Source: Candidatus Campbellbacteria bacterium (GTDB lineage Bacteria > Patescibacteriota > Minisyncoccia > Phycocordibacterales > EsbW-18). Taken from it: a DNA stretch of 64,000 nt. A model generated the notes under the pieces. The model did not search any database. It was not told where the DNA came from and saw nothing but the letters and a program-made list of their open reading frames with translations. The translations under genes and the position numbers were made by a program. The stretch is from positions 13,281 to 77,280 of the forward strand of contig JANLIT010000004.1 of NCBI GenBank assembly GCA_024653945.1, in the 5' to 3' direction. How positions within the stretch are numbered: position 1 is the stretch's first letter; each line of letters begins with the position of its first letter. Below, one piece after another: positions 1 to 40,338 of this stretch.

Positions 1-15
1 AGATAAGTATACACT

Positions 16-162
16 GCGGAGACGGGAGGATTCGCCTCTCGTTGCTGGTGCAACTCGAAACCTTCGCCTCCTCTTCGGAAGCTGCGGCCCGCGGTTCGAA
101 TTGCACCCCCTTTCTCCATAGTACGCAAAACAGATGGCAAAAGCCATCCTTGTTTGCATATG
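16..162 (-). repeat. tRNA-linked repeat element (TLE) downstream of tRNA-Ser; its distal end is a 20-nt direct copy of the tRNA-Ser 3' end
   Basis: Exact duplicate tgcggagacgggaggattcg at 16-35 and 161-180; internal imperfect inverted repeat 47-63/101-116; same architecture as the other tRNA-adjacent copies in this window. Confidence 0.55.
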
Positions 163-249
163 CGGAGACGGGAGGATTCGAACCTCCGATCCGGTTTCCC
201 AGATGCCGGTTTTCGAAACCGGTGCCTTCAACCACTCAGCCACGTCTCC
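163..249 (-). tRNA. tRNA-Ser(CGA), type II with long variable arm; CCA not encoded
   Basis: Cloverleaf read by eye: acceptor GGAGACG/CGTCTCC, anticodon stem CCGGT/ACCGG with loop TTCGAAA, T-arm GGAGGTTCGAATCCTCC. Confidence 0.85.
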
Positions 250-966: not shown

Positions 967-1040
967 GGCCTCATCGTCTAGCCTGGTTAGGACGTCACCC
1001 TTTCACGGTGAAAACTCGGGTTCGAATCCCGATGAGGTCA
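967..1040 (+). tRNA. tRNA-Glu(TTC); CCA not encoded
   Basis: Acceptor GGCCTCA/TGAGGTC; anticodon stem TCACC/GGTGA with loop CTTTCAC; T-arm TCGGGTTCGAATCCCGA. Confidence 0.85.
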
Positions 1041-1236
1041 CAACACAAAACAGGGCGCCCATATGGGGCGTTTTTGTTTTGTGTCTAGTGGACCGAAATA
1101 GCAGGCAAACTACTTTGCCTGCGTCGGAATTCGAATGACGGAGCATGTTTCGAGCATGGCGAGAAACAGCGAGTCACGTCCAGCAGTACTTATGAGCAAA
1201 GCGAATTAGTAACTGCGGGACGAATCCCGATGATAC
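1041..1236 (+). repeat. TLE downstream of tRNA-Glu: hairpin, conserved core, then a partial copy of the tRNA-Glu T-arm/3' end
   Basis: The hairpin ACAAAACAGGGCGCC/GGGGCGTTTTTGTTTTGT follows the tRNA directly; core motif AGTACTTATGAGCAAAGCGAATTAGTAACT is shared with the Gly, Trp and Lys copies; terminal GCGGGACGAATCCCGATGA resembles the tRNA-Glu 3' end. Confidence 0.55.
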
Positions 1237-1317
1237 GACAAAATACTTAGTGATCCGTGACCACAAAAAAGGAGATAAAAGTTATACACCCCACACATAT
1301 CACTTACATATCCAGAA

Positions 1318-4763: not shown

Positions 4764-5414
4764 CTACTTCGTATCGTCGCTATCAACAAGTGTCGCGTAG
4801 ACAACAAGTACTCGGTCGTATTCCTGTGTCTCTTGGCTATATGTTCCTGAGCAGGTAATAAGACGCAAACCTGGAAACGTTATATCGCCGTATACTTTTT
4901 CTGTCGGAAAATTGCTTCTATCGTACCGTTCAAGTACTGTTACACGAAATGTTGCTGTTGTTCCGTCTGCGCGATCTACATACACATAGTCGCCTTCTGT
5001 GAGTTGACCAAGAGATAAAAACACACCAGGGCCTTCATACGAGTCAACATGTCCGAGCACAACAGCAGGACCAATTTCACCAGGTGTCGGACCATAGGTG
5101 TACCATCCAACTTCTGTGTATCCTTTTGGAATTTCAATTTCACCATTTTCTTGCAGACCAAGAGGAACAAAATTAGTGTCCACAAATATATCTGGAATAC
5201 GCAAACGCATTGGGTCTGAATCTTCAAGCGGGCGCGCTGGATCAAAAATCGGTCGTGAAGATGTTGCAAGAGTTTCTTGAGAATTTTTTTGTGTCAAATA
5301 TGTGGTGACACCTCCTTGTGATGCTATAAGGATTCCAAAACCAACGACAAGCAACACAACGCCCACAGATATAAGTACTTTTTTTGTGTTCATTTCTGAA
5401 TTAAACAACATCAT
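4764..5414 (-). CDS. sortase family transpeptidase
   Basis: N-terminal TM anchor; His motif VVLGHVDS; catalytic TLxTC motif LRLITCSG; conserved downstream Arg. Confidence 0.75.
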   Translation of the reverse strand: MMLFNSEMNTKKVLISVGVVLLVVGFGILIASQGGVTTYLTQKNSQETLATSSRPIFDPARPLEDSDPMRLRIPDIFVDTNFVPLGLQENGEIEIPKGYTEVGWYTYGPTPGEIGPAVVLGHVDSYEGPGVFLSLGQLTEGDYVYVDRADGTTATFRVTVLERYDRSNFPTEKVYGDITFPGLRLITCSGTYSQETQEYDRVLVVYATLVDSDDTK

Positions 5415-5572: not shown

Positions 5573-7390
5573 TTAGTAAAGACACATCTTCAATCCTCCA
5601 AATCCTGTAGCAGGAGCACCGAGTGGAAGAATGGATGTTTGCTCACCCAAGACCTCACCAAGAACCTCTCCGCCACCATCTGTGGATGAGTTTCGACGAC
5701 GGAAGCCACTTCCTCCACCGTCGTCGTCATCGTCTCCGTTTGTATCATCACCACCAGTATCTTCGTGAGAATATGAGTTGGTGAATGTACATGTTACATC
5801 CTGATCTTCAGAGAGATACACAGTTACAGACCTCTCTGGTTTATTCGTGTCATACTCAGTTCCATAGTTACAACTAATGAGAGACAGGCTCCAATCAACA
5901 CCTGCATCTACTTCACTGATTGTGTACGTTCCTGAAGAAAGATTCGACAGTACCTCAGGTTCATCATTTGCAGAAAGATCAAACGATGATTCATCCCAGT
6001 AATTAAATGTAAATATGTGGGTTCCATCCGCACCTTCGTTTACCTCCTTGTCAATTGTGATTGAACCTCCGTTCTGATGATTACCAAAGTCCTTGAGCGA
6101 GAAGGTGCCGGGTGTTCCTTCTCCGTCGCCCTGAATCCGATGTCCAACAGTGCCGTTTGCGCAGGTAACCGTTCCGTCCGAAGCGGAAATCGGCGAGGTC
6201 TGTTCCCAACCGCTTTGGACCTCTTCGCAGACAACGTAATTAAGCTCTGGGTCTAAACTGTCGAAGGAGTAGTTGCCGTCGCCATCGGTCGTAGTCGTGT
6301 CCGCGGGCGTCTCTTCGATTACAGTCGTATCTTCGTCGATTGTGTACGGGAACAGGTTGATGGTCCATCCGTCGATGCCGGATTCGTCATCGCTCTGCCG
6401 ATCGCTGTTCACGTCGTTCCACTTCATGCCAGTAACAATGGATCGCGTGGTATTGGTAAAGGTACAAGTCACATCATCGCCACTTTCCACAGTGATTCGT
6501 TCGCCATCTTCAACGGCACTACCAGTGCTATCACCATCGTAAATACATTCTACGTCGGCTAATTGCCAGGCGCTCTGCTGGGTTTCCAGAACATCATATG
6601 TTCCAGGAGCGAGGGAGATGGGACTGGAAGTCGCGGTGTTATCTTCTGGGTCAGCGTCAGGTGTAAGATCAACCCCGTACAAGAACACGGTTGGATCTAT
6701 TCCCGTCACCAAAAATTCAAAGTTGGGGGTCCTTCTAGGGTCAACTGGCTCACCTTGCACGAGACCTTGAAAATCCCCAATCTTCACAATCGTAAGGGTT
6801 GCTGGAGGTATACATGTCTCGCTGTCCACAGTCAGTCTGAATATAACTCCTGCTGGATTACCCGGTCCGTCGGGTTCGTCGTTTGTTGCCTCAATCGTCA
6901 GCGTGTTCGTACCGCTCAAAAGAGAGCTGGCTGGGATAGGGTGTGTTCCAACAATCTGCCAATTGTCACCAGAGCCTACCGCATTGCCGTTGATGGTGAC
7001 AACGTAACTGTTGTCCGCGGTGATATCAAGAGAAGCTCCTGTTGGTGTTCCAACAATCTCAAACGTTCTCGTGAAGGTCAGCGTGCCGGCTGGGTGCGAG
7101 CCTGTGTCATCGGCAGGGACTTTGTCTGCATCCCAGATCCACGTAGCACCTGATGGAAGTGGATCATAGTCATCCCATACGGAGTGTGGAGTAACAGCAA
7201 CCGCATTACCACTACCTACTTGTGTTTCCGAATCACTGACAAGTGTCTGTGTGCTTGGGTCACACGCTGGTGCTACCGTTGCATTTGCGTTCAGTGGACT
7301 AAAAGAAAATACCCCAATAAAAAGAAGTGCGCCCAAAAGCCCCAGCCCAATAGTTCGATGTGTTTTATACGATGTAGTAATGAGAGCCAT
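5573..7390 (-). CDS. secreted adhesin-like surface protein (605 aa) with SdrD-B/Cna-B-like domains; paralog of the 1639-aa gene upstream
   Basis: Signal peptide MALITTSYKT...NANA; SdrD-B/Cna-B-like segments with Thr-Cys-Thr-Phe-Thr-Asn (TCTFTN) motifs and GMKWNDVNSDRQ; C-terminal 45 aa identical to the paralog (ends LPLGAPATGFGGLKMCLY). Confidence 0.7.
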   Translation of the reverse strand: MALITTSYKTHRTIGLGLLGALLFIGVFSFSPLNANATVAPACDPSTQTLVSDSETQVGSGNAVAVTPHSVWDDYDPLPSGATWIWDADKVPADDTGSHPAGTLTFTRTFEIVGTPTGASLDITADNSYVVTINGNAVGSGDNWQIVGTHPIPASSLLSGTNTLTIEATNDEPDGPGNPAGVIFRLTVDSETCIPPATLTIVKIGDFQGLVQGEPVDPRRTPNFEFLVTGIDPTVFLYGVDLTPDADPEDNTATSSPISLAPGTYDVLETQQSAWQLADVECIYDGDSTGSAVEDGERITVESGDDVTCTFTNTTRSIVTGMKWNDVNSDRQSDDESGIDGWTINLFPYTIDEDTTVIEETPADTTTTDGDGNYSFDSLDPELNYVVCEEVQSGWEQTSPISASDGTVTCANGTVGHRIQGDGEGTPGTFSLKDFGNHQNGGSITIDKEVNEGADGTHIFTFNYWDESSFDLSANDEPEVLSNLSSGTYTISEVDAGVDWSLSLISCNYGTEYDTNKPERSVTVYLSEDQDVTCTFTNSYSHEDTGGDDTNGDDDDDGGGSGFRRRNSSTDGGGEVLGEVLGEQTSILPLGAPATGFGGLKMCLY

Positions 7391-7487
7391 ATGTATATGA
7401 TTAGTGACCCACCTTTAGTGGCGAGCTCTGATTAATTAACAACTTTTATTAAAATACTTTTCCCGAGGGTTAAACCTCTGCTTAAAA

Positions 7488-7520
7488 GAAGCGAAGCTTC
7501 CCTTCTGGAAGCTTCGCTTC
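7488..7520 (-). terminator. hairpin downstream of the 1639-aa gene; duplicate of the hairpin at 5527-5559
   Basis: GAAGCGAAGCTTCC-CTTCT-GGAAGCTTCGCTTC perfect stem; a REP-like GAGGGTTAAACCTC lies next to it at 7465-7478. Confidence 0.55.
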
Positions 7521-7534
7521 TTGCTTTTAAATCT

Positions 7535-10500
7535 TTAGTAAAGACACATCTTCAATCCTCCAAAGCCTGTGTTTGGAGCTCCGAGTGGAAGAATGGATGT
7601 TTGTTCACCCAAAACCTCACCAAGAACCTCTCCGCCACCATCTGTGGATGAGTTTCGACGAAAACCTGAGCTTCCGCCACCATTACTTCCACCACCATCG
7701 TCTGTTGTAATTGTAGGATTTTGGTGGTTACCGAAGTCAATACCAACCAGAGAATCTCCTAGAGAAAGTTCCACTTCATGGCCGGCCCCTTCACCCTGAC
7801 AGAGCGTGTTGCCCGACGGGTATGTCTTCTCCCATCCGTCCTGGCCCGTCTCACAGACTATGTATGTGTCTGGAATAAGGTCGGAGAATGAGTAGTTTCC
7901 ATCAGCGTCGGTTTCCGTTGACACGATGAACCCGCCTTCACTATCGTTTGAAGCGTGGATCGCCCAGCCCTGAAGACCTGGTTCACCCGAATCCTTGATA
8001 CCATCAGCGTTAAGGTCATTCCACTTCATACCCGAGATTGAGCCTCTGTCATCATCGTTTGTAAAGACACACGTAATTGTTTCTCCGTTAGACAGAACAA
8101 TGTTGCCTGAATTAATATCGGTGTGTCCTGTGTCATCTGATGTACACGATACACTTTGAAGATTCCATCCAGGTAGAACTGTCTCAGTCACTGAATACGA
8201 GGTGCCAACATTAAGGTCACCACTGTTGTGTTCCTGATTTGCTTCAAGCAAGAAGTTATCAGTACTCCAACTTGGGTCAAATTCAAACGCAGTGTTTGTG
8301 TCGCTTACTTCTGTCACCTCCTTGCGAACGATAATTCGTTCGCCATCATCGTCATCGTCGTCTCCACTTGTTTGAGGGTCATAGGTGTTGGTGAATGTGC
8401 AGGTAACGTCTTCATCCTCACCAAGTGTAATTTCAACATCACCTTCACCTAGGTCGTGAAAAAAATCAACGTCGTCGCCACAATCAACATCCGTGACATA
8501 CCAATCGTCGTCGGTGCTAGTTAATTCAGTAACGATATAGCTTCCAGCTACAAGACCTGAGAATGTTTCTGGATCATTGCTTGCTGTAAGGAGTATGTCG
8601 TCATCGCCCCCATCGAGGTCAAATGAGAATGCTTCATCTTGACTTCCCCCCACAACAACCTTATCAATCGTAATAGAACCTCCGTCCTGGTGATTGCCGA
8701 AATCAAAACCATCTCGGTCATCAGTACCTGTGTCAATAATAAGTTGGTACCCAACACCATCATCACACGCTACAGCATATCCGTCAGAAATCTCTGGTGA
8801 TGTTTGATTCCAACCACTTCCTTGTGCTTCACACACTTTGTAATCGCCATAAGAAATATTGAACTGGTAGTAACCGTCTGAATTTGTTTCCATTGAGCCA
8901 ACGAGGACATCCTCGTCATCATAGATATTGATAGTCCAACCTTCAATTGTTGGTTCGTCGTAATCTTTGTATCCATCATTATCAAGATCGTTGTACTTCA
9001 CACCATTGATGTTTCCTTCACCACCTCCCTGTTGTCCGTCTCTCTCGTTGATAAGGTTGAAGGTGTACACACCCTGATCACTGTCGATATTCCAAACAGT
9101 ACCTCCTCCCGCACCACTGAAGTATGACCAGCCATCCTGCATAACTTCGTCCACAGTGTACTCATCAAGAGCAACATCATTGAAGGTTACACAACCTGTT
9201 TCATCAGTAATACCTGTGTACCCCTTGTAGATATCAACCGAGAGTGTTCCTGAGTTATCATCAAACCATCCTGGGTTCTGCACACCACTATCACCATCAA
9301 AGATGGTAAATGGTACTGGACCAGTAACGCTTGGTGTGAACCCTTGGAGGTATGCATGTGGAGTATTGTATGCACCCCAGTTGCCGAATCCAAGTCCACT
9401 AAAGTCGCCACCAATGTTGAGTTCAAGAATTTCTGTTGGGTACCCTGTGTATCCGTCCATCTGGGTTGCCCAAGAATCTATTGTAGAGTATTCAGAGTCA
9501 ACAAGGTTTGCACCACCTTGGTTACTCCACGTACCGTCTGCAAAAGCAAGGTATGATGTTCCCGCGTCAAGCGATGTTGAGTCAGTACCGTTGATATCCT
9601 CTGAATCAACAATCAAGTCCGATTCTACAGAATCACCCTTGAGGAAGACCGTCCATCCTGAAAGACCCTCGTTCTGGCCCACCTCATACTTACAAATCGT
9701 AACTTCATTGTGGTGTTCTGGTTCTTGTGGTGGCACACAGAAGAGCGCCACGTTGTCGAGGAACGTCCCCTCGGAGTTTGGAGTACCGAGGTCTTTAAAT
9801 GCGATGTCTGTTGAACTGTCTCCGGCTACAAATGAGTGTGCATACGTGTTCCATACCGTGTTTAGATTTGCACTTCCATCAAGACTCACCGCGTTAAGCA
9901 CGTTGCCATCTTGTGAGACTTCAAGATTGTTTTCTGAAGTTCCTGTTCCTGGTCGTGGAGAGAATGCGTATGAAAGTTGATACGTTCTTCCTGGAACCGT
10001 TGCAATAGCTTCTGAAATGATAGTTGATGCCTCTTCACCATTTGGACCACTTGCGTGACCGTTCCAATCAGAATCGAGCTCAGCGTACTGTTCAAGCTCA
10101 TATGGCAACCATCCGTTTACTCCACCGTGAAGTTCTGCATTTGCTGTAGCGGGAGCGCCTACAAATGCACCCGCCCATGCAACCGTCCAATCAAGACCTG
10201 AAAAACCTGAAGCAAAGATGTCCCATCCAGAACCATCGGTAACGTCTGGCAATTCAAATCCTCCGTTTGCAATAAGATTTTGTTCAGGATTACACTCGCG
10301 AGCGTTCACAAGGTTAAATGTTTGTGTGGGTTCATTTACTGTGACCTGACTTCCTGCATTAGTTGCATCATCTGCATCAGTAAGGTTTTCCCAACCCTCC
10401 TGCATAAATTCATCAAGAGTATATGTGCCATAAGGAACCGCTTCAAATGACACACAACCATCTTTATTCGTTGTTCCTGAATAGTCGTGTTCATCAGTAT

Positions 10501-12454
10501 CATCGGCCATAAATGTATCATCACCGACATACTCATCAAGCCACACCTCCCAATCTGAGAGAAGGTTTTCTGGGTCAACTGAGTTTTCATACTTACAAAT
10601 CGTTATGTCTGATGTGTCTTCAACTGGTGGTTGCTCACAAGATGTCTGCTCTTCACCGTTCACCACAAGTTGGTAGATACCTGCTGCGGGGTTCCTTTCA
10701 GGAAGCTGTTCGTATCCTGCCATACCAATGTTTTCAACCGTCAATTCAATAGTGTTCCATCCTGAATCAACATAACTGGTGACATCCGTAGGACCAGTAA
10801 CAGCTCCATAGTTAAATTCGGTTATGTTTGAGATAACAGGGTCACCGTTGATAGTAATCCAGTAGCGGTTATCTGCAGCAAGATTAAGAGTTGCGTCGTT
10901 TACAGGACCGTCAACAAAGAAATCTTTTGTAAATGTTTTTGCCACAGTTTGTGATCCGTCAACAACTTGATAGCTGTCCCAAATCCAAGTAGCTACACTG
11001 TTGAGTGCTGTGGTCCATGCACCGTGAATCCACGCGGCAACTGCATCACCGTTACCAACGCCTTCGTCACCCGCTTCACTCACCACCTCTACACGACACG
11101 CTTCTGCCACCAAGATAGGAACGTTCCACGCAACACAGTAGTAGTCTGTGTCCGGTGTGGTGCTAAGCCATTCCCAGTTATCATAGTGAAGTATGTCATC
11201 AGAACAATAGATTTCTGCTGAAACATTTTCTGTTGTGTTTTGACCTGTAAAAGGAATGTAATTTGCGTCAAAAAGTTCACGTACACGAAGCTGACTATCG
11301 TTTGAAATATCAACCACTGCAGTACCAGCAACAAATGCTGTCCATCCTGCTCCTGCTGAGCCTGGAGTATTGTCGTCAGGGTCTCCAGCGGTGCTGTAAC
11401 TCCATTCAAAGTCCCACGGAACGAGCTGACAGCCGTTATTTGGGTTTGCTGCGAGCCAGCGAGTTGCAGTATTTGATGTCACAGTTGTAAGTGTTGATGT
11501 ACCTGCGCCCCAGTTTGGAAGGTCACTTTCTTCATCACACTCAATTTTTTGTGCGTGAAGGGTAACAGTTTCTTCTGATGGAACGACGCCTTCGTTATAT
11601 GCAACACAGTGGGCAGTTCCGTCAGTGGGAACGAATGTAAGCTCTTGGTTATCGTTTGTACCAGAAGTATCTCCGTCACCTTCACAGTAAAGACCTAAAA
11701 CATCTTCGTTTGGAAGTTTGTTACCGGCGCCGTCGGTTTCAACAATAAGATAGCGTCCAGCTGATGGGAGATTGTCTATAGTGAGTATTCCGCTACCGTT
11801 TGTTGAACCATCTTCAATGAATGGTCCGTCTAATTCTGGGTAAGGACCATCGGTATCATCTGCTTCGCCGTGAACATACCCAAAAGTCTTGCCCGACTGC
11901 AAAGCACATGCTTCTGGTACATCTCCGCCTACACCATTATCGTCGCGATTTACGGTTGTACCGTCAGGACACACGTATTTTGTAATTTCAATTGAACCCG
12001 TTGGGTCATCACTGCCTATATCTTCACAAGCATCCCCGATATTATTCTGATTTCCGTCTACCTGATCTGGATTTACAGCATTTACACAGTTATCACATGC
12101 GTCTCCAACACCATCCCCATCTGCATCTTCTTGGTTAGGATTTGCAACCTCAGAACAATTATCTGAGTCATCGGGAATATCATCATCGTCTGTGTCTACT
12201 GGATCTGGTGCGGGACAAGCGCCACTTTGATCGGGCATAACATCTCCGTGGTCAAGATGTGTTTGAAGAGCGTTTGCATTAAAGGTTAACAAAGAGAAAT
12301 TGCCGTCGTCGTCTTTGTGACAAACAGTAACATCTCCTGCTGGTTGTGCATTTACTAACGAGCCAAAAGAAAACACTCCAACAACAAGGAGTGCGCCCAA
12401 AAGCCCCAACCCAATAGTTCGATATGTTTTATACGAGGTAGTAATGAAAGCCAT
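7535..12454 (-). CDS. giant secreted adhesin-like protein (1639 aa) with thrombospondin type-3-like Ca-binding repeats and several SdrD-B/Cna-B-like domains
   Basis: Signal peptide; D-rich DxDxDG/NC..NP.Q repeats (about aa 83-150); segments with TCTFTNT/TCVFTND motifs and GMKWNDLNADG; C-terminus identical to the 605-aa paralog. Confidence 0.75.
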   Translation of the reverse strand: MAFITTSYKTYRTIGLGLLGALLVVGVFSFGSLVNAQPAGDVTVCHKDDDGNFSLLTFNANALQTHLDHGDVMPDQSGACPAPDPVDTDDDDIPDDSDNCSEVANPNQEDADGDGVGDACDNCVNAVNPDQVDGNQNNIGDACEDIGSDDPTGSIEITKYVCPDGTTVNRDDNGVGGDVPEACALQSGKTFGYVHGEADDTDGPYPELDGPFIEDGSTNGSGILTIDNLPSAGRYLIVETDGAGNKLPNEDVLGLYCEGDGDTSGTNDNQELTFVPTDGTAHCVAYNEGVVPSEETVTLHAQKIECDEESDLPNWGAGTSTLTTVTSNTATRWLAANPNNGCQLVPWDFEWSYSTAGDPDDNTPGSAGAGWTAFVAGTAVVDISNDSQLRVRELFDANYIPFTGQNTTENVSAEIYCSDDILHYDNWEWLSTTPDTDYYCVAWNVPILVAEACRVEVVSEAGDEGVGNGDAVAAWIHGAWTTALNSVATWIWDSYQVVDGSQTVAKTFTKDFFVDGPVNDATLNLAADNRYWITINGDPVISNITEFNYGAVTGPTDVTSYVDSGWNTIELTVENIGMAGYEQLPERNPAAGIYQLVVNGEEQTSCEQPPVEDTSDITICKYENSVDPENLLSDWEVWLDEYVGDDTFMADDTDEHDYSGTTNKDGCVSFEAVPYGTYTLDEFMQEGWENLTDADDATNAGSQVTVNEPTQTFNLVNARECNPEQNLIANGGFELPDVTDGSGWDIFASGFSGLDWTVAWAGAFVGAPATANAELHGGVNGWLPYELEQYAELDSDWNGHASGPNGEEASTIISEAIATVPGRTYQLSYAFSPRPGTGTSENNLEVSQDGNVLNAVSLDGSANLNTVWNTYAHSFVAGDSSTDIAFKDLGTPNSEGTFLDNVALFCVPPQEPEHHNEVTICKYEVGQNEGLSGWTVFLKGDSVESDLIVDSEDINGTDSTSLDAGTSYLAFADGTWSNQGGANLVDSEYSTIDSWATQMDGYTGYPTEILELNIGGDFSGLGFGNWGAYNTPHAYLQGFTPSVTGPVPFTIFDGDSGVQNPGWFDDNSGTLSVDIYKGYTGITDETGCVTFNDVALDEYTVDEVMQDGWSYFSGAGGGTVWNIDSDQGVYTFNLINERDGQQGGGEGNINGVKYNDLDNDGYKDYDEPTIEGWTINIYDDEDVLVGSMETNSDGYYQFNISYGDYKVCEAQGSGWNQTSPEISDGYAVACDDGVGYQLIIDTGTDDRDGFDFGNHQDGGSITIDKVVVGGSQDEAFSFDLDGGDDDILLTASNDPETFSGLVAGSYIVTELTSTDDDWYVTDVDCGDDVDFFHDLGEGDVEITLGEDEDVTCTFTNTYDPQTSGDDDDDDGERIIVRKEVTEVSDTNTAFEFDPSWSTDNFLLEANQEHNSGDLNVGTSYSVTETVLPGWNLQSVSCTSDDTGHTDINSGNIVLSNGETITCVFTNDDDRGSISGMKWNDLNADGIKDSGEPGLQGWAIHASNDSEGGFIVSTETDADGNYSFSDLIPDTYIVCETGQDGWEKTYPSGNTLCQGEGAGHEVELSLGDSLVGIDFGNHQNPTITTDDGGGSNGGGSSGFRRNSSTDGGGEVLGEVLGEQTSILPLGAPNTGFGGLKMCLY

Positions 12455-12814: not shown

Positions 12815-12852
12815 CCCAAAGGTTAAACCTTCGCAAAGGTTTAACCTTTGGG
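12815..12852. repeat. REP-like palindromes (2 copies) of the family CAAAGGTT(T)AAACCTTYG
   Basis: caaaggttaaaccttcg followed by caaaggtttaacctttgg; the same palindrome family flanks the RAYT gene. Confidence 0.65.
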
Positions 12853-12867
12853 TACCATACATATCCA

Positions 12868-12996
12868 TAAAGGACATTATAAAAGACATTTAAATATGGA
12901 TGCGATGTTTATATTTTTATAAAGGACATAAAGGACATTATCTCGCCCCACCTTCCACCACCAAAGGTTAAACCTTTGGGCGTTGCGTCCTTTATA
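12868..12996. promoter_or_regulatory. array of five TAAAGGACAT-like direct/inverted repeats in the intergenic region upstream of the giant adhesin gene
   Basis: taaaggacat at 12868, 12920 and 12929; taaaagacat at 12879; inverted copy gtcctttata at 12987. Confidence 0.35.
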
Positions 12997-13043
12997 AAAA
13001 TTTCATCCCTGTGGTGTAAATTACCGAACGAAGGTTTAACCTT
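12961..13043. repeat. two REP-like palindromes at the 5' side of the RAYT gene
   Basis: ccaaaggttaaacctttgg (12961-12979) and cgaaggtttaaccttcg (13027-13043). Confidence 0.65.
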
Positions 13044-13052
13044 CGTAAATCT

Positions 13053-13710
13053 TATGGGAAGAAAAGTGGCACTTGCTCTGGGTGAGTTTTACCATCTCTA
13101 TAACCGGGGCGTCGAAAAAAGAATAGTTTTCACTAATAAATATGACTATGATCGTTTTTTGTCCCTGATGTATCTATGCAATACCACAAAATACGTAGAT
13201 GCTCGAGAGCAAGGAGGTACGCTTCAAAAAGCCTACAGAACAAGGGGTGGCAATCGAATAGTTGATATCTGTACGTATTGCCTTATGCCAAACCATTTTC
13301 ACATTCTCATAAAGGAAATGGCCGAGGGTGGTGCCAGTAAATTTATGCAAAAACTAACCACAGGATACACAATGTACTTCAATAAACGATATAAACACAC
13401 CGGGGCACTTTTTCAAGGAACATACAAATCATCACACGCAAATACCGACCAATATCTTTCCTACCTTATTGCGTATATTCATCTCAATCCTGTCAAAATT
13501 ATTGAACCGAACTGGAAAAAAGACGGCATCCTGAATTTACAAAGAGCTGAAATGTACCTAAAAGAATACCCGCACTCAAGTTATCTCGACTATCTCGGCA
13601 AAACACGCGTTCATAATTGCATCATAAATAAGAGTGCTTTGCCTGAGTACTGTAGTACTCCACAAGATTTTATGGAAAGTGTTAAAACTTGGCTCTCCCC
13701 GAAGGTTTAA
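13053..13710 (+). CDS. REP-associated tyrosine transposase (IS200-like Y1 transposase, RAYT)
   Basis: HuH motif NHFHILI and catalytic-Tyr region YLIAYIHLNPV; flanked on both sides by REP palindromes; the ORF track starts at 12976, but the two 5' REPs lie inside that extension, so Met 13053 is preferred. Confidence 0.75.
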
Positions 13711-13734
13711 CCTTCGCGAAGGTTAAACCTTCGG
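13700..13734. repeat. two REP-like palindromes overlapping the RAYT stop codon
   Basis: cgaaggtttaaccttcg and cgaaggttaaaccttcg. Confidence 0.65.
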
Positions 13735-18307: not shown

Positions 18308-18399
18308 AATGTGCGAGTAGCGAGAACCTGCCTGCCGGCAGGCGGGTCGAACTCGGGTCTTAACCTTGGCCCTGCAATAATTTTGCGGACCTGTGCGAG

Positions 18400-18537
18400 T
18401 GGTGGGAATCGGTCACGAGTTACTAATTCGCTTCGCTCATAAGTACTCTCGACCCCGCCTCCCAAATTGTCACACTGTGATAATTTGGTCCGGCCTTCGA
18501 TTCCCGCGCATCCATCAAAAAAATAATTTTTTGATTG
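18400..18537 (-). repeat. TLE downstream of tRNA-Gly
   Basis: After the tRNA comes a hairpin ATCAAAAAATTATTTTTTTGAT, then motifs GGAATCGAAGGCCGGA and GAGGCGGGGTCGAGA, then AGTACTTATGAGCGAAGCGAATTAGTAACT, then CGTGACCGATTCCCACCACTCGCACA, which is a partial copy of the tRNA-Gly 3' end. Confidence 0.6.
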
Positions 18538-18608
18538 TGCGAGTGGCGGGAATCGAACCCGCGTCAGATGCTTGGGAAGCATCCATTCGACCACTGAACT
18601 ACACTCGC
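18538..18608 (-). tRNA. tRNA-Gly(CCC); CCA not encoded
   Basis: Acceptor GCGAGTG/CACTCGC; anticodon loop TTCCCAA; T-arm GCGGGTTCGATTCCCGC. Confidence 0.85.
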
Positions 18609-23893: not shown

Positions 23894-23934
23894 ATTGCGG
23901 GCTTCGCCACGCCGAAGGTTTGCTACTGCGAACC

Positions 23935-24081
23935 GAAGGCGGGCCCACGAGGAATCGGTCACGAATCACTAAGTATTTTTGTTTCCTACGGAACCAAAAA
24001 TTCTAAGTGTTCTCGACCCCGCCTCAGCATATCTGCTTCCGGCTTTCGATTCCTCATATTAAATTACATTTTAATTATAAT
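23935..24081 (-). repeat. TLE downstream of tRNA-Trp
   Basis: 19-nt exact copy of the tRNA-Trp 3' end (gcgggcccacgaggaatcg at 23941-23959 and 24081-24099); shares GGAATCGAAAGCCGGA, GAGGCGGGGTCGAGA and TACTTAGTGATTCGTGACCGATTCC with the Gly copy. Confidence 0.6.
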
Positions 24082-24152
24082 GCGGGCCCACGAGGAATCG
24101 AACCTCGATCACCGGTTTTGGAGACCGGAGTTTTACCACTAAACTATAGGCC
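24082..24152 (-). tRNA. tRNA-Trp(CCA); CCA not encoded
   Basis: Acceptor GGGCCTA/TGGGCCC; anticodon stem CCGGT/ACCGG with loop CTCCAAA; T-arm CGAGGTTCGATTCCTCG. Confidence 0.85.
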
Positions 24153-24265
24153 CGAAATGAGGAACAGAGAGAAGCTTGCTTACTCTTTGTCTCCGAATGA
24201 GGGCCTATATCGAGTAAGCGAAAATATAGGCCCCTATTTAGGCATTGTACCAGTTTTACTTCCCC

Positions 24266-25300: not shown

Positions 25301-25329
25301 GAAGCTGGGGAGGACCGCGAGTACGCTTT

Positions 25330-25486
25330 TCTCCCTCGACTAAACTTTTGCCGTCGCAAAAGTTTGTCTGGGCACCACCTCACGAAATTTTCTACTGAAA
25401 ATTTCGCTCCGGTGTTCGAATCCTCCTCTTCCAACAGCGTCAGAATGAAAAATACACCAGGCATTGCTGGTGTATTTTTCATTCTG
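25330..25486 (-). repeat. divergent TLE-like region downstream of tRNA-Tyr, including a perfect 20-bp-stem hairpin
   Basis: Stem cagaatgaaaaatacaccag/ctggtgtatttttcattctg at 25441-25486 directly abuts the tRNA; GGAGGATTCGAACACCGGAGCG resembles the GGAATTCGAATGACGGAGC motif of the Glu copy; 9-bp inverted repeat GAAATTTTC/GAAAATTTC. Confidence 0.45.
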
Positions 25487-25569
25487 TGCGCCGGGGAGGA
25501 TTCGAACCTCCGTAGCCCGAAGGCGCTAGATTTACAGTCTAGTGCGATTGACCGCTCCGCCACCGACGC
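25487..25569 (-). tRNA. tRNA-Tyr(GTA), type II; CCA not encoded
   Basis: Acceptor GCGTCGG/CCGGCGC; anticodon loop CTGTAAA; long variable arm; T-arm GGAGGTTCGAATCCTCC. Confidence 0.85.
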
Positions 25570-32482: not shown

Positions 32483-32519
32483 GGAGGATTTGTTGTGTTG
32501 GGAATTAAATGCCGGATTT

Positions 32520-32600
32520 GGGCCAGTGGTGGAATGGTATACACGCACGACTTAAGATCGTGTCTCGTATGAGATGTGGGTTCGAGTCCCACCTGGCCCA
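32520..32600 (+). tRNA. tRNA-Leu(TAA), type II; CCA not encoded
   Basis: Acceptor GGGCCAG/CTGGCCC; anticodon loop CTTAAGA; long variable arm; T-arm GTGGGTTCGAGTCCCAC. Confidence 0.8.
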
Positions 32601-32716
32601 CAAAGCGAAGCTTTGTCGTGTGGGACGAGAAAGTCGCAGACCGACGGGCCGAGACGGGGCTGCAAAATTTTTCAGCAGAAAAATATTTGTGGCCGAGTCC
32701 CACCTGGCCCACACCA
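32601..32716 (+). repeat. TLE downstream of tRNA-Leu(TAA)
   Basis: 19-nt copy of the tRNA 3' end gagtcccacctggcccaca at 32695-32713; hairpin AAAGCGAAGCTTT directly after the tRNA; GAGACGGGGCTGC resembles GAGGCGGGGTCGAGA. Confidence 0.5.
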
Positions 32717-36138: not shown

Positions 36139-36211
36139 CCACCCATAGCTCAGCTGGTAGAGCAGCTCCCTCTTAAGGAGACGGTCGTAGGTCCGATTCC
36201 TACTGGGTGGA
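36139..36211 (+). tRNA. tRNA-Lys(CTT); CCA not encoded
   Basis: Acceptor CCACCCA/TGGGTGG; anticodon loop CTCTTAA; T-arm GTAGGTCCGATTCCTAC. Confidence 0.8.
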
Positions 36212-36387
36212 CTTTCGGTAGAAAGTCCTGCAAACTAGAGCGCACGGCGGTGCGCACCGCACCAGCAAGCCGTACCTGGTTCGCGCGAAGTGCGATACGG
36301 CTTACTGGGTGGACTACGAGTACTTAGAATTTTACAAGTGTAGCGAAGTAAAATACTTAGTAACTTGTGACGACTTTCACACATATT
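36212..36387 (+). repeat. TLE downstream of tRNA-Lys, extending to the start of tRNA-Leu(TAG)
   Basis: 13-nt copy of the tRNA-Lys 3' end tactgggtggact at 36304-36316; hairpin GCGCAC-GGCG-GTGCGC; core GAGTACTTAGAATTTT...AATACTTAGTAACTTGTGACGA matches the Trp, Gly and Glu copies. Confidence 0.55.
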
Positions 36388-38827: not shown

Positions 38828-39172
38828 TTATTGAACGCCAGGTACTGGCAAATTACCACCTGTCGTAACTCCAACCTGAGCGGCAATGAAGTTAATAATA
38901 CCGACGATTGCAACCATCACGAAAAGCGCAATGATACCTCCAATCATAAGACCCTTGCCTTTCTTTCGAGCCTCATCATCATCTGAATTCATGATGAACT
39001 TAATCAACCCCCAGAAGAATACAAGGAGGGCCAAACCAATAACAATAGGCGTTGCGGTGTCAATCAATCTTCCAATTGCGGTAAGAATATTTGAAACACC
39101 ACCCAACTGTGCAAATGCAAACAATGGTGTGAATGCAGATGCGATAGCGAGACCTTGTAGAACTTTTTTCAT
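38828..39172 (-). CDS. VirB2/TrbC-like pilin family protein (2 of 6)
   Basis: Signal peptide ...LFAFAQ; two TM helices with loop NSDDDEARKKGKG. Confidence 0.55.
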   Translation of the reverse strand: MKKVLQGLAIASAFTPLFAFAQLGGVSNILTAIGRLIDTATPIVIGLALLVFFWGLIKFIMNSDDDEARKKGKGLMIGGIIALFVMVAIVGIINFIAAQVGVTTGGNLPVPGVQ

Positions 39173-39263
39173 ACGTAGTGTGTAATTACTTTTAATATAA
39201 TGCTAACAACTTAATACTATCACCAACATACCCGAGAAACTAGATACTCTGTCCCCAAAACCG

Positions 39264-39608
39264 TTACAGAGTTACCTTGGGAGGAGTGAACGGACCGTCT
39301 ACTGGGCTAAGACCGAGAGATGACCTAATAAATGCGACTAACCCAACGACTGAAAATAATACGAATAACGCTATCACCCCGTATATCATAATACTTTTCC
39401 CTTCCTTGGCCTTGTCCGCATCACCAGCACTGGTAAGATACTTTACAATTCCCCACATAAACACAAGAAGAGCGAGCGAGGCAATTATTGGGATAAGCCA
39501 ACCAACCCACACCCCCAAACTGGTTATAACACTCCCAACACTCTGTGCAAACACAAACAACGGCGAGAGTACAAGCACTGCAACAAGCGATGATATATAT
39601 CTACGCAT
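39264..39608 (-). CDS. VirB2/TrbC-like pilin family protein (3 of 6)
   Basis: Signal peptide ...VFAQS; loop TSAGDADKAKEGKS between two TM helices. Confidence 0.55.
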   Translation of the reverse strand: MRRYISSLVAVLVLSPLFVFAQSVGSVITSLGVWVGWLIPIIASLALLVFMWGIVKYLTSAGDADKAKEGKSIMIYGVIALFVLFSVVGLVAFIRSSLGLSPVDGPFTPPKVTL

Positions 39609-39628
39609 AATGATTAAATTAATGACAA

Positions 39629-39925
39629 TTAAAATATTGACCTATAAAGCAGTTGCACAATTCCCCAGAACGAAAAAAGAATAAAGAGTGCGAGGATTCC
39701 ATACGTCATAATACTTTTACCTTCTTGTGCTTTTGCTTCATCACCGGCATTGCGTATGTATTTTACAATACCCCATATAAAGAATAGCACCGCAAGCCCT
39801 GTGAGCAAAGCAAGAATGGGATTAAGAAGTCCTGTGAAGAGTCCAATCAAACCAGCCAAATCTGTAACGGCAAAAGAAACCAGTGGCGCAAAAACAAGTG
39901 TGAGAAGTAGCAGTATTTTTTTCAT
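39629..39925 (-). CDS. VirB2/TrbC-like pilin family protein (4 of 6)
   Basis: Signal peptide ...VSFAVT; loop RNAGDEAKAQEGKS; close paralog of copy 3. Confidence 0.55.
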   Translation of the reverse strand: MKKILLLLTLVFAPLVSFAVTDLAGLIGLFTGLLNPILALLTGLAVLFFIWGIVKYIRNAGDEAKAQEGKSIMTYGILALFILFSFWGIVQLLYRSIF

Positions 39926-40338
39926 ACAATATCTTGTTGGGTTGTTGGCGCATCTCTGTGGCCAAGTTGAGTAACGGTATTTTTAATAACATCTGAAAGA
40001 ATTTGTGCACCAAGAAGAACTGCCGCGCCAACAACCGTCCAGAGAAAAGTATTTTTTGCATCCGTAATTCCCTTTGGGTCCCCTCGCGCTTTCACAAACA
40101 AAAATCCTGAATAAATGAGGAAAAAGACGATGACAAAGTAACCAATATCTTTAACCGCTGTGACAATAATAGTGATGAGTGCAGGAATACTGGTTACATT
40201 ATTAAGTGGGTTCTCGATGGTACTACCTTCACCGCCCACTTGTGCAAAAATGACCATAGGAACCACAAAAACAAACAGTGCCAGAGCGAGAGACACAACC
40301 GCACGTATCTTTTTATTTTTTTGAAAAAATGTGTTCAT
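39922..40338 (-). CDS. VirB2/TrbC-like pilin family protein (5 of 6)
   Basis: Signal peptide ...IFAQV; two TM helices; loop KARGDPKGITDAKN. Confidence 0.5.
   Translation of the reverse strand: MNTFFQKNKKIRAVVSLALALFVFVVPMVIFAQVGGEGSTIENPLNNVTSIPALITIIVTAVKDIGYFVIVFFLIYSGFLFVKARGDPKGITDAKNTFLWTVVGAAVLLGAQILSDVIKNTVTQLGHRDAPTTQQDIV

Follow-up and report, generated by a model that had tools for sequence, protein, structure and literature searches.

A direct repeat that runs from the T-loop to the 3' end of a transfer RNA (tRNA) gene is the textbook footprint of tRNA-integrating elements. Bacteria of the Candidate Phyla Radiation (CPR, Patescibacteria), which represent a large share of bacterial diversity and have genomes of about 1 Mb, are thought to be poor in mobile elements. 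We examined a 64-kb stretch of DNA from Candidatus Campbellbacteria (the window, i.e. the whole of the stretch that was analysed), in which an earlier note, made from the letters alone, had drawn attention to repeats behind tRNA genes. These repeats form a genuine multi-copy family of non-coding elements, ~90-150 nt long, that follow tRNA genes and leave the host tRNA gene intact. On the tRNA-sense strand, the order is tRNA, usually a terminator-like hairpin, a 5' arm, a structured core and a direct copy of the tRNA tail. In the interpretation that we favour, and to which we would give about an even chance, they are non-autonomous insertion elements targeted to the T-loop and 3' end of tRNA and transfer-messenger RNA (tmRNA) genes, with a core that folds as single-stranded RNA or DNA. 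The nearest paper deals with group I introns that interrupt CPR tRNAs in the anticodon loop and reports group II introns as absent from Patescibacteria (2026 survey, PMC13011429). No published description of such elements was found in a full-text literature search, whose coverage was incomplete, and this agrees with the earlier note, which did not recognise them as a described class.

Anatomy and fold of the element

The element flagged in the note follows tRNA-Gly(CCC) (18537..18608, minus strand; Rfam tRNA model 68.9 bits), a gene without encoded CCA that was called, as all tRNA genes of the window, by ARAGORN and checked with Rfam. Behind the gene and on the same strand, an AT-rich spacer hairpin (18514..18536) leads to the 5' arm GCGGGAATCGAA (18496..18507), which is the reverse complement of T54-C65 of tRNA-Gly, i.e. 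of the T-loop and the 3' strand of the T-stem, and which provides the 5' strand of a helix designated P1. This inverted match of 12 nt exceeded the maximum of 10 nt obtained with shuffled sequences, and the arm is paired in the minimum-free-energy fold. The core (18412..18500), referred to as type A, is composed of UCGAAGGCCGGA, the hairpin P2, GAGGCGGGGUCGA, the hairpin P3 with a bulged A, and GUGAC, which together make a three-way junction. After GTGAC comes the distal direct copy CGATTCCCACCACTCGCACA (18392..18411), identical at 19 of 20 positions to tRNA-Gly from C56 to just past its 3' end; it makes up the 3' strand of P1 and the acceptor 3' strand. Further along the minus strand (18310..18359) lies an older, T-arm-like remnant, not scored by the covariance model introduced below, which ends in a third partial tRNA-Gly tail ACTCGCACA (18310-18318).

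A search pattern derived from the Gly and Trp cores (TCGAANNCCGGA, a gap of 5-35 nt, GAGGNGGGGTCGA) was run on a collection of species-representative genomes and returned at least 120 loci; numbers such as L024 or L226 denote related loci from other genomes that were compared with the window. An alignment of 112 related elements from other genomes (A1) was used to build a covariance model (R1), which was applied to the window with every filter disabled. With nhmmer, a profile of A1 was run over 1.03 Mb comprising the motif loci and independently anchored loci.

At each locus, the 5' arm is the reverse complement of the T54-C56 loop bases and the T-stem 3' strand of the locus's own tRNA (GCGGGAATCGAA for Gly, GAGGAATCGAA for Trp, GGAGGATTCGAAC for Tyr), and it therefore pairs with the terminal copy to form P1. 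The conserved block which had previously been described as T-loop-like and antisense is thus antisense indeed, and more specifically so than had been supposed. The arm measures 7-10 nt at most loci and up to 19 nt, that is, the whole tRNA tail, elsewhere. That it might be a copy of the tRNA 5' half was rejected, as at L036, where the tRNA has a U6.G67 wobble, the arm shows C and not U, in other words the base complementary to the 3' strand. In one subfamily, the arm is interrupted by an extra hairpin P0 (loop CUGC), giving an acceptor-like stem, the P0 hairpin and a T-like stem, a fold which resembles a cloverleaf without D and anticodon arms. The P0 and P3 (CAGCAG) loops were also compared for a kissing interaction, an idea that was abandoned, being inconsistent across loci when judged by eye.

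The consensus of the core reads UCGAA-R-GCC-G-GA[P2]GA-GGC-GGG-GUCGA-NNN[P3]A-N'N'N'-GUGAC, and GUGAC is followed by CGA NN, the T-stem 3' strand, the acceptor 3' strand and N73 C(CA). The three-way junction is supported by RNAalifold and by explicit pair counting in A1. Paired cells amounted to 86.8%, against 29-41% (~36%) when the 3' partners were slid, and cells with double changes numbered 618 against 234 +/- 12 in shuffles. P2 and P3 were 89-99% paired with many pair types per position, i.e. they covary strongly. In the same alignment, about 25 junction nucleotides are conserved and the stems are variable; the bulged A of P3, eight nt ahead of the GUGAC|C56 junction, is invariant, and a G.U pair in P3 is present in 111 of the 112 sequences. 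The columns TCGAA, CCGGA, GAGG, GGGGTCGA and partly GTGACC were fixed by the search pattern and so are conserved by construction. Members found by the model only do vary at these columns, with compensation (GUC/GAC in Leu-TAA and in the tRNA-Tyr element of L226, GGC/GCC in the tRNA-Trp element of L226).

The conserved structure belongs to the tRNA-sense strand. With the invariant pair left out, P3 contains 13 G.U against 1 A.C, and the loop motifs are asymmetric with respect to their complements (GCGAAGC 17 vs 1, CGACGG 25 vs 1, CAGCAG 25 vs 2). Outer P1 is without such bias (85 G.U vs 107 A.C), like a decaying repeat. This is as expected of decaying DNA repeats if the elements were by-products of replication or repair, arising by fold-back template switching at palindromic tRNA terminators, with the core carried along passively and without function; the proximal tail, the spacer hairpin and the arm do make one long palindrome centred on the terminator loop, which points the same way. 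Such an origin leaves unexplained, however, both a core conserved with compensatory changes across phylum-level lineages and a second conserved core with the same flanks (type C, see below), and of the explanations weighed here we hold it to be the least probable, indeed highly improbable.

As for the chemical nature of the folded species, the 221 terminal loops included 4 GNRA, no UNCG and 33 C-GNA-G triloops, the last of which are exceptionally stable in DNA. From this loop repertoire, it follows that the folded species may be RNA or single-stranded DNA.

The distal copies are identical to the tRNA from C56 on, the junction being always at position 55/56. They usually stop at the tRNA end (N73 plus 1-3 nt), and those of genes with encoded CCA contain it too. 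The direct repeats measure 19-22 nt, with longer ones of 25 nt (L029), 45 nt (L055) and 53 nt (L090); in L055 and L090, which are apparently young copies, the repeat continues through the terminator hairpin. Since the end of the repeat varies in this way (19-53 nt), the duplication is not of fixed length.

Members in the window

The window contains 11 tRNA genes according to both ARAGORN and Rfam, located where the earlier note had placed them. The covariance model gave five significant matches, all directly 3' of a tRNA and on the tRNA strand: Trp (85.4 bits), Gly (85.0 bits, expectation value (E) 8e-29, spanning 18400-18509), Leu-TAA (43.6 bits, E 1e-13), Glu (41.4 bits) and Tyr (35.5 bits). 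Beyond these, no match in the 64 kb was better than E = 0.1. The Ser segment reached 8.6 bits (E 0.86), while at Lys only model positions 55-86, a P3 fragment, were matched (E ~1), and this fragment lies after the tail copy, not before it. The window holds two intact, three diverged and two uncertain or fragmentary members. All seven segments had been assigned to one family, an observation which we could confirm only in part, because just five of them were significant in the model, the interior at Ser being unrecognised and Lys fragmentary.

For the tail copies, the longest exact match was compared with 500 shuffles, in which the maximum was 9-11 nt. The copies of Ser (19 nt, or 20 with the next A), Trp (19 nt), Leu-TAA (19 nt, or 20 with the next A), Glu (13 nt) and Lys (12 nt) all exceed this maximum, whereas the 8-nt copy of Tyr is not significant alone, and the four tRNAs without an element have matches of 5-8 nt, i.e. 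at chance level. Locus-specific terminal copies had been claimed for all seven tRNAs and exactness for Ser (20 nt) and Trp (19 nt) only. The shuffles bear out the former for Ser, Trp, Leu-TAA, Glu, Lys and Gly, with Tyr as the exception; as for the latter, Leu-TAA has to be added to the exact ones. Among shorter motifs, GGAATCGAARGCCGGA and GAGGCGGGGTCGAGA have exact occurrences in the window at Gly and Trp only. Trp, Gly and Lys share the P3 motif TACTTAGTRAYTYGTGAC, as noted before, and it is present downstream of Glu as well. A match of 28 of 30 positions between Glu and Gly exists at ~1186-1215; at 1175-1204, where it had been located, 22 of 30 positions agree.

The remaining loci differ in their state of preservation. 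The tRNA-Trp locus (23939..24153, minus strand) consists of the tRNA (24082-24153), a spacer (24056-24081), the 5' arm (24045-24057), a type A core (23958-24049) and the exact 19-nt distal copy (23939-23957). At tRNA-Leu(TAA) (32520..32713, plus strand), the tRNA (32520-32601) and a small hairpin (32602-32614) are followed by the 5' arm (32620-32631), a diverged type A core (32627-32693) and the exact 19-20-nt distal copy (32694-32713). The tRNA-Glu locus (967..1262, plus strand) has the tRNA (967-1041), a terminator-like hairpin (1042-1084, from a terminator scan), the 5' arm (1124-1135), a degenerate core (1130-1221) and a decayed tail copy (1222-1233; 13 nt counting the preceding C). Directly past this copy, an orphan 3' half of P3, AAATACTTAGTGATCCGTGACC (1241..1262, plus strand), suggests a second tandem element that has been mostly deleted. 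At tRNA-Tyr (25307..25569, minus strand), the tRNA (25486-25569), a spacer hairpin (25442-25485) and the 5' arm (25414-25426) precede a variant core (25315-25420), termed type B, with an extra GCGUACUCGC mini-hairpin, and a residual copy of 8 nt (25307-25314).

The two uncertain loci are built differently. Behind tRNA-Ser(CGA) (locus 15..249, tRNA 162-249, minus strand), a terminator-like hairpin (125-157) and an unrelated long hairpin (47-107) precede the exact 19-20-nt tail copy (15..34), which starts at C56; no core is recognised and the interior is different. The tRNA-Lys locus (36139..36371, plus strand) is rearranged or fragmentary, with the tRNA at 36139-36212, a hairpin at 36267-36303, the 12-nt tail copy at 36303-36314 and then a P3-like fragment ending in GUGAC (36318-36371). 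In addition, an orphan 5' end of an element, GGGAATTAAATGCCGGA (32500..32516, plus strand; a core-motif match with 3 mismatches), directly follows tRNA-Cys and abuts tRNA-Leu(TAA). It is the antisense of the Cys T-loop followed by CCGGA and resembles the first 17 nt of the element, the remainder of which looks to be missing or displaced by the Leu gene.

Linkage to tRNA genes and behaviour among relatives

Among the matches listed for the pattern search (at least 120 loci), 117 either belonged to Patescibacteria/CPR or were tRNA-linked elements on contigs in metagenome-assembled genomes (MAGs) labelled otherwise, and three were evident chance matches in high-GC non-CPR genomes. The groups represented among these matches were Saccharibacteria, Paceibacterota/Parcubacteria, WWE3, Kaiser-, Campbell-, Yonath-, Vogel-, Peri- and Berkelbacteria, and WS2. 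Again among the matches listed, 88 of 121 were located within 150 nt 3' of a tRNA on the same strand, most often at 58-65 nt, and 34 anticodons were involved; tmRNA genes precede elements as well (L041, L058, L071, L103). The nhmmer profile gave 156 matches. Of these, 128 lay no more than 400 nt behind a tRNA or tmRNA gene on the same strand (111 within 120 nt of its 3' end, and 17, which are second elements of a tandem, at 121-400 nt), so that in related CPR genomes the motif abuts tRNA and tmRNA 3' ends rather than lying mostly away from them, as would have refuted the earlier note. Another 9 matches were cut off by the ends of the loci and 19 had no detectable tRNA upstream, several of the inspected ones sitting behind decayed tRNA or tmRNA tails. 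An exact 11-mer copy was found downstream of 93 tRNAs at related loci.

Next, the CCA ends of the host genes were considered. In the window, CCA is encoded by none of the 7 occupied tRNA genes and by 3 of the 4 unoccupied ones (Phe, Cys and Leu-TAG, all three element-free). A rule by which elements occur only behind genes without encoded CCA failed in the wider set (p = 0.17); by a rough estimate from counts, the link is weakly present in loci of mixed CCA status. The tRNA genes without encoded CCA mostly end in N73-C-A, 60 of 69 having C74 (window and related loci). At 10 of 69 genes that do not encode CCA, N73-CCA is read in the distal copy, a weak signal (rough p ~0.005, uncorrected for multiple testing) which is only suggestive of distal copies carrying the post-transcriptional CCA. 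CCACCA is the tag that CCA-adding enzymes attach to unstable tRNA-like RNAs. At L100 (7594-7716, minus strand), the distal copy of tRNA-Ser(TGA), ...CCGCCACCAAC, contains CCACCA, the gene reading ...CCGCCgg; this is a single case and may be due to chance.

The N73-CCA copies would fit a catalytic or RNA-mediated mobile element, as would the right end of the repeat, which coincides with an RNA 3' end (mostly that of the mature tRNA; the terminator U-tract in L090 and L055). In the catalytic version, a self-cleaving or self-splicing RNA would adopt an alternative fold with its arm on the real tail, bringing U55|C56 and GUGAC|C56 together at the junction like splice sites, the bulged A being placed eight nt before them. 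In the RNA-mediated version, a retroelement or viroid-like circle would be copied back into DNA at tRNA 3' ends, and the genomic order can be read as a unit plus the terminal redundancy of a circle joined at GUGAC|C56. The architecture is ribozyme-like in its ~25 conserved junction nucleotides and in the invariant bulged A and G.U, but no ribozyme or intron was matched in Rfam even at E up to 10, where the element region gave sub-threshold matches only, and the loop repertoire is atypical for RNA. Moreover, no reverse transcriptase was detected in Pfam scans of 50 open reading frames (ORFs) of the window or among the recurrent neighbour protein clusters, which lacked family annotation, and group II introns are reported to be absent from Patescibacteria (PMC13011429). 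Given also the weakness of the uncorrected CCA signal and the lack of a significant overall link between CCA and occupancy, an element of this kind seems quite unlikely to us. A related proposal, which we consider simply unlikely, is that the core might be a new small catalytic or guide-bearing nucleic acid whose antisense arm would find the T-loop and which would cut and join U55|C56; it may take the form of a mini-intron or ribozyme, of a viroid-like circle, or of a single-stranded DNA substrate for a structure-specific enzyme. If such guide-directed homing were true, it would define a new class of mobile elements that regenerates an intact tRNA, is pervasive in CPR and has at least two unrelated cores (A and C).

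Orthologous sites were compared by means of synteny (clpB, tRNA-Tyr, tRNA-Trp, DUF192, murJ, lepA); the DUF192 protein of the window shows 100% identity to one recorded under the name Candidatus Campbellbacteria. An element sits behind tRNA-Trp in the window and also in L224, L226 and L228, three relatives from the Campbellbacteria. Among these orthologues, P2 and P3 modules have been exchanged and P3 exists in long and short forms; mismatches in the distal copy number two in L228 and four in L224, with the core intact (64-82 bits). Three distant Saccharibacteria-like contigs have only a terminator after tRNA-Trp (L149, L150, L151), L146 has unrelated sequence without an element at this place, and L145 a divergent variant. 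The tRNA-Tyr site of L226 holds an intact type A element, to which corresponds, within the same flanks, the window variant with its different P3 region. The copy in L224 is truncated to spacer, arm and TCGAAGGCCG, and L153 retains the fusion GGGATTCGAAGGCC|TCCCGGCGCACC, a deletion remnant. As a side observation at the tRNA-Trp site, the window has an extra ~43 nt between the distal copy and the DUF192 start codon (23896-23938, minus strand) that are missing in L224, L226 and L228; the segment ends in GCCCGCA, resembling a further degenerate tRNA-Trp tail copy.

Long persistence at the orthologous tRNA-Trp and tRNA-Tyr loci, like the strong covariation, speaks for a different explanation, namely that the tRNA 3' trailer contains a structured non-coding RNA module of use to the host. 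The earlier note had named this as its alternative, and we retain it as a live rival, albeit a rather unlikely one. The module might be a tRNA-like minihelix, made of an acceptor-like and a T-like helix with the junction in place of the T-loop, which would serve tRNA-processing enzymes as a processing or stability signal, or a switch in which the arm pairs with either the real tail or the decoy copy. At positions where tail and copy disagree, the arm is complementary to the real tRNA in 174 cases and to the copy in only 48, which favours such a role, as do the subfamily with acceptor-like stem, P0 hairpin and T-like stem, and the start codon of the downstream DUF192 gene, located 2-4 nt past the Trp copy in L224, L226 and L228. 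A terminator-like hairpin usually stands between the tRNA and the element, however, and many copies are degenerate, truncated or absent in close relatives. In L228, L224 and the tRNA-Met group, decay has affected the acceptor part of the distal copy but not the core. The acceptor-like helix often pairs through N73-C74, so that no free NCCA end is left. The scarcity of GNRA and UNCG loops (4 and 0 of 221) and the absence of an Rfam match likewise do not suit a trailer RNA.

Several genomes contain traces of multiplication or rearrangement. In one Saccharibacteria MAG, the tRNA-Arg and tRNA-Met elements are identical from GGAATCGAA to GTGACCGAT save for one compensatory pair, while their arms, tail copies and flanks differ. 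Tandem arrays are found at L024 and L027, and at L024 the whole unit (spacer, arm, core and copy) is repeated, the second unit having a different core. On the WWE3 contig CALKWN010000065.1, a unit of ~190 nt (spacer, element and a Gln-type tail copy) is present 100% identically at two sites ~16 kb apart and with unrelated flanks (L038 6600-7180 and L126 2750-3330). One of them is behind a real tRNA-Gln, and the other behind AGGTTCTAGACCCGTATGCTCAGCCA, a decayed, tRNA-tail-like sequence in which no tRNA is detectable; AGGTTCTAGACCCGTATGCTCAGCCA is conserved in a second WWE3 genome (L109). Finally, six loci carry a second, unrelated conserved structured core, designated type C, with the same arm-and-copy architecture: UCGAAC..GGGAGGGGGUCGGGGAAC..GUUCCCCGUGGAGGAA..GAAACCGUGGGUUUC (L024 667-848, minus strand; L027 4420-4544, plus strand; L122, L067, L052, L102). 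Type C also stands behind tRNAs with a locus-specific antisense arm and a tail copy, sometimes in tandem with type A.

Selfish DNA that recombines is marked by patchy presence, arrays, truncations, module exchange, near-identical cores at different tRNAs and a duplicate at a non-tRNA site, as seen here. At the same time, compensatory change, the conserved junction, strand asymmetry and orthologous persistence show that the sense-strand fold is under selection. An insertion element, the interpretation preferred here, might combine both as follows. The core would be a single-strand fold of the sense strand, as RNA or single-stranded DNA, read by a trans-acting enzyme, and the 5' arm would act as a guide or clamp for the near-universal T-loop by pairing with T-loop and T-stem. 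Insertion, or recombination of a small intermediate (perhaps circular, single-stranded DNA or RNA), would join GUGAC to C56, with a second copy of the tRNA tail as the outcome. Owing to the repeats identical to it, the tRNA would stay intact, and the homology of these repeats could then serve further recombination, resulting in tandem arrays, in an exchange of modules among copies and in transfer to other genomes. Copies no longer used would decay to remnants such as those at Glu, Tyr, Lys and L224.

The following points weigh against this interpretation: i) no pair of filled and empty orthologous sites with identical flanks was recovered, so insertion was not directly observed; ii) the orthologous copies of Campbellbacteria persist although the flanking proteins are only ~70% identical, and their structure is kept by compensatory change, which fits a host function too; iii) even copies that look young have a locus-specific 5' arm, which simple cut-and-paste transposition with fixed ends does not explain; iv) no transposase, recombinase, reverse transcriptase or autonomous partner was identified in the searches described here; and v) the sample of loci was selected by motif, which biases some of the seemingly invariant columns as well as the occupancy, 124 of 259 tRNA and tmRNA genes in that sample compared with 7 of 31 tRNAs in an unbiased subset made up of the window and the ClpB-anchored and DUF192-anchored loci.

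Candidate enzymes and comparison with known systems

The earlier note had likened the segments first of all to an attL/attR signature of tRNA-targeting integrative elements with little but arm sequence left. On this reading, they would be scars of tyrosine-integrase prophages or integrative elements that had inserted in the T-loop and lost all but their arms by deletion. The direct repeat from T-loop to 3' end, the targeting of tmRNA genes and the tandem arrays would all agree with this. The same Pfam scans of the 50 window ORFs revealed no integrase, be it a tyrosine or a serine recombinase, however, and no ORF cluster was enriched beside the 117 loci: none occurred at more than 10 of them, the top ones being LepA (10 loci) and SmpB (8, at tmRNA loci), in a set of clusters that was not annotated by family. 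The core pattern was found on zero viral contigs in IMG/VR. A phage or plasmid origin was rejected, as GenBank phages and PLSDB plasmids matched only the tRNA part of the query in blastn; 16-mer matches were marginal (~16 bits, E ~0.005) and judged to be chance. No attP carrying the core thus came to light in the viral, phage and plasmid collections, and no integrase in the window. Nor do scars account for a single ~100-nt core at 34 tRNA specificities across the superphylum (among the matches listed), for a three-way junction whose hairpins covary with compensatory changes in place of arm-type repeats, or for an inverted copy of the tRNA end, a feature foreign to att sites. The att reading is therefore not supported, and we rate it as very improbable.

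Known RNA families gave no lead either. At gathering thresholds, Rfam 15 recovered the 11 tRNAs of the window only and left the element unmatched. At E up to 10, the best further match, to tmRNA_permuted (24.7 bits, against a gathering score of 47), was discarded, for it arose from the T-arm of the real tRNA and from a likeness of GGGAAUCGAAGG to the tmRNA 5' region; YrlA and other weak Rfam matches were explained by the adjacent tRNA, and nothing was matched around L038.

The sole gene of mobile-DNA type in the window is a RAYT-like homologue of Y1 (HUH) transposases (12976-13710, plus strand) with the motifs NHFHIL and GALFQGTYK (Pfam Y1_Tnp, 38.4 bits; NCBIfam REP_Tyr_transpos, 42 bits at a cutoff of 80). 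Six copies of a palindrome, AAGGTTWAACCTT, AAGGTT(A/T)AACCTT, flank it on both sides (12819-12848, 12964-12976, 13031-13043, 13702-13731) and occur nowhere else in the window. As these palindromes differ from the element and are confined to this site, the gene, at first sight a promising candidate for the element's enzyme, was set aside. The palindrome hairpin (stem AAGG/CCTT, loop starting with TT) is loosely T-arm-like. Elsewhere, the window encodes very large SpaA/SdrD-type surface proteins (605, 1639 and 1154 amino acids) beside sortase genes, and three tandem genes resembling pilins of type IV secretion systems (SpaA/SdrD, sortase and pilin-like genes at 5573-12454, 55787-59251, 4764-5414, 59290-59979 and 38828-40338). 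This is typical surface machinery of epibionts and is unrelated to the element.

The meaning of the family depends on which explanation holds. A structured insert on nearly half of the tRNA and tmRNA genes in the motif-selected sample (7 of 31 in the unbiased subset) is in any case a large amount of unexplained conserved sequence to be kept under genome reduction. If the elements are selfish, they would represent a new way of parasitising the most conserved genes of the cell without harm, and species could recombine through the homology that they provide. A core that is catalytic, or that a dedicated enzyme reads as single-stranded DNA, would amount to a new ribozyme or recombination system into which a programmable arm is built; elements useful to the host would add a layer of tRNA expression in CPR that is unknown elsewhere. 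In practical terms, the repeats will confound tRNA annotation, att-based prediction of prophages and islands, and assembly in CPR MAGs.

When compared with known systems, the elements share with integrative elements targeting tRNA and tmRNA genes the choice of the 3' part as target, the intact tRNA, the direct repeat from T-loop to 3' end and tandem accretion. They differ in lacking an integrase, cargo and a phage or plasmid attP, in the small size of the inserted segment (only ~100-200 nt), and in having a structured, covarying core and an extra inverted copy of the target. With REPIN/REP sequences and their RAYTs, and with the PATEs derived from IS200/IS605, they have in common that they are short, non-coding and multi-copy, form strand-specific imperfect hairpins with conserved feet, extrahelical bases and variable tips, and would need a single trans-acting enzyme. 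Their loops are often C-GNA-G, as in stable DNA hairpins, and a RAYT-like gene is present in the window. In contrast to REPINs and PATEs, however, the arms are locus-specific copies of the target and not fixed ends, and the RAYT-like gene is flanked by another palindrome. Transposable elements of the miniature inverted-repeat kind (MITEs) have terminal inverted repeats common to all copies and target duplications of fixed length, whereas here the arms differ from locus to locus and the duplication varies in length.

Mobile self-splicing introns and IStrons resemble the elements in that they are structured, invade conserved RNA genes while the host gene remains functional, and possess a guide-like segment that pairs with the exon or target; the elements, in turn, lie behind a complete tRNA, are far too small and have no intron or ribozyme match in Rfam. 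As for tRNA-like tags, i.e. the t-elements of plant mitochondria, tmRNA including its two-piece form, and the 3' end of the Mauriceville retroplasmid, the likeness consists in an acceptor-like and a T-like helix and in tRNA-identical sequence, and in tmRNA_permuted also in the order of T-arm, acceptor 3' strand, spacer and GGAAUCGAA-like segment. Unlike in such tags, the T-loop is replaced by a junction, the acceptor-like helix often pairs through N73-C74, neither a tag reading frame nor a reverse transcriptase belongs to the element, and the Rfam tRNA model gives it no score. Because each of the families considered fails in at least one testable defining feature, we rate the element family as outside the known kinds, be they att sites, MITEs, REPIN/IS200-IS605 sequences, introns, known ribozymes or tRNA-like tags.

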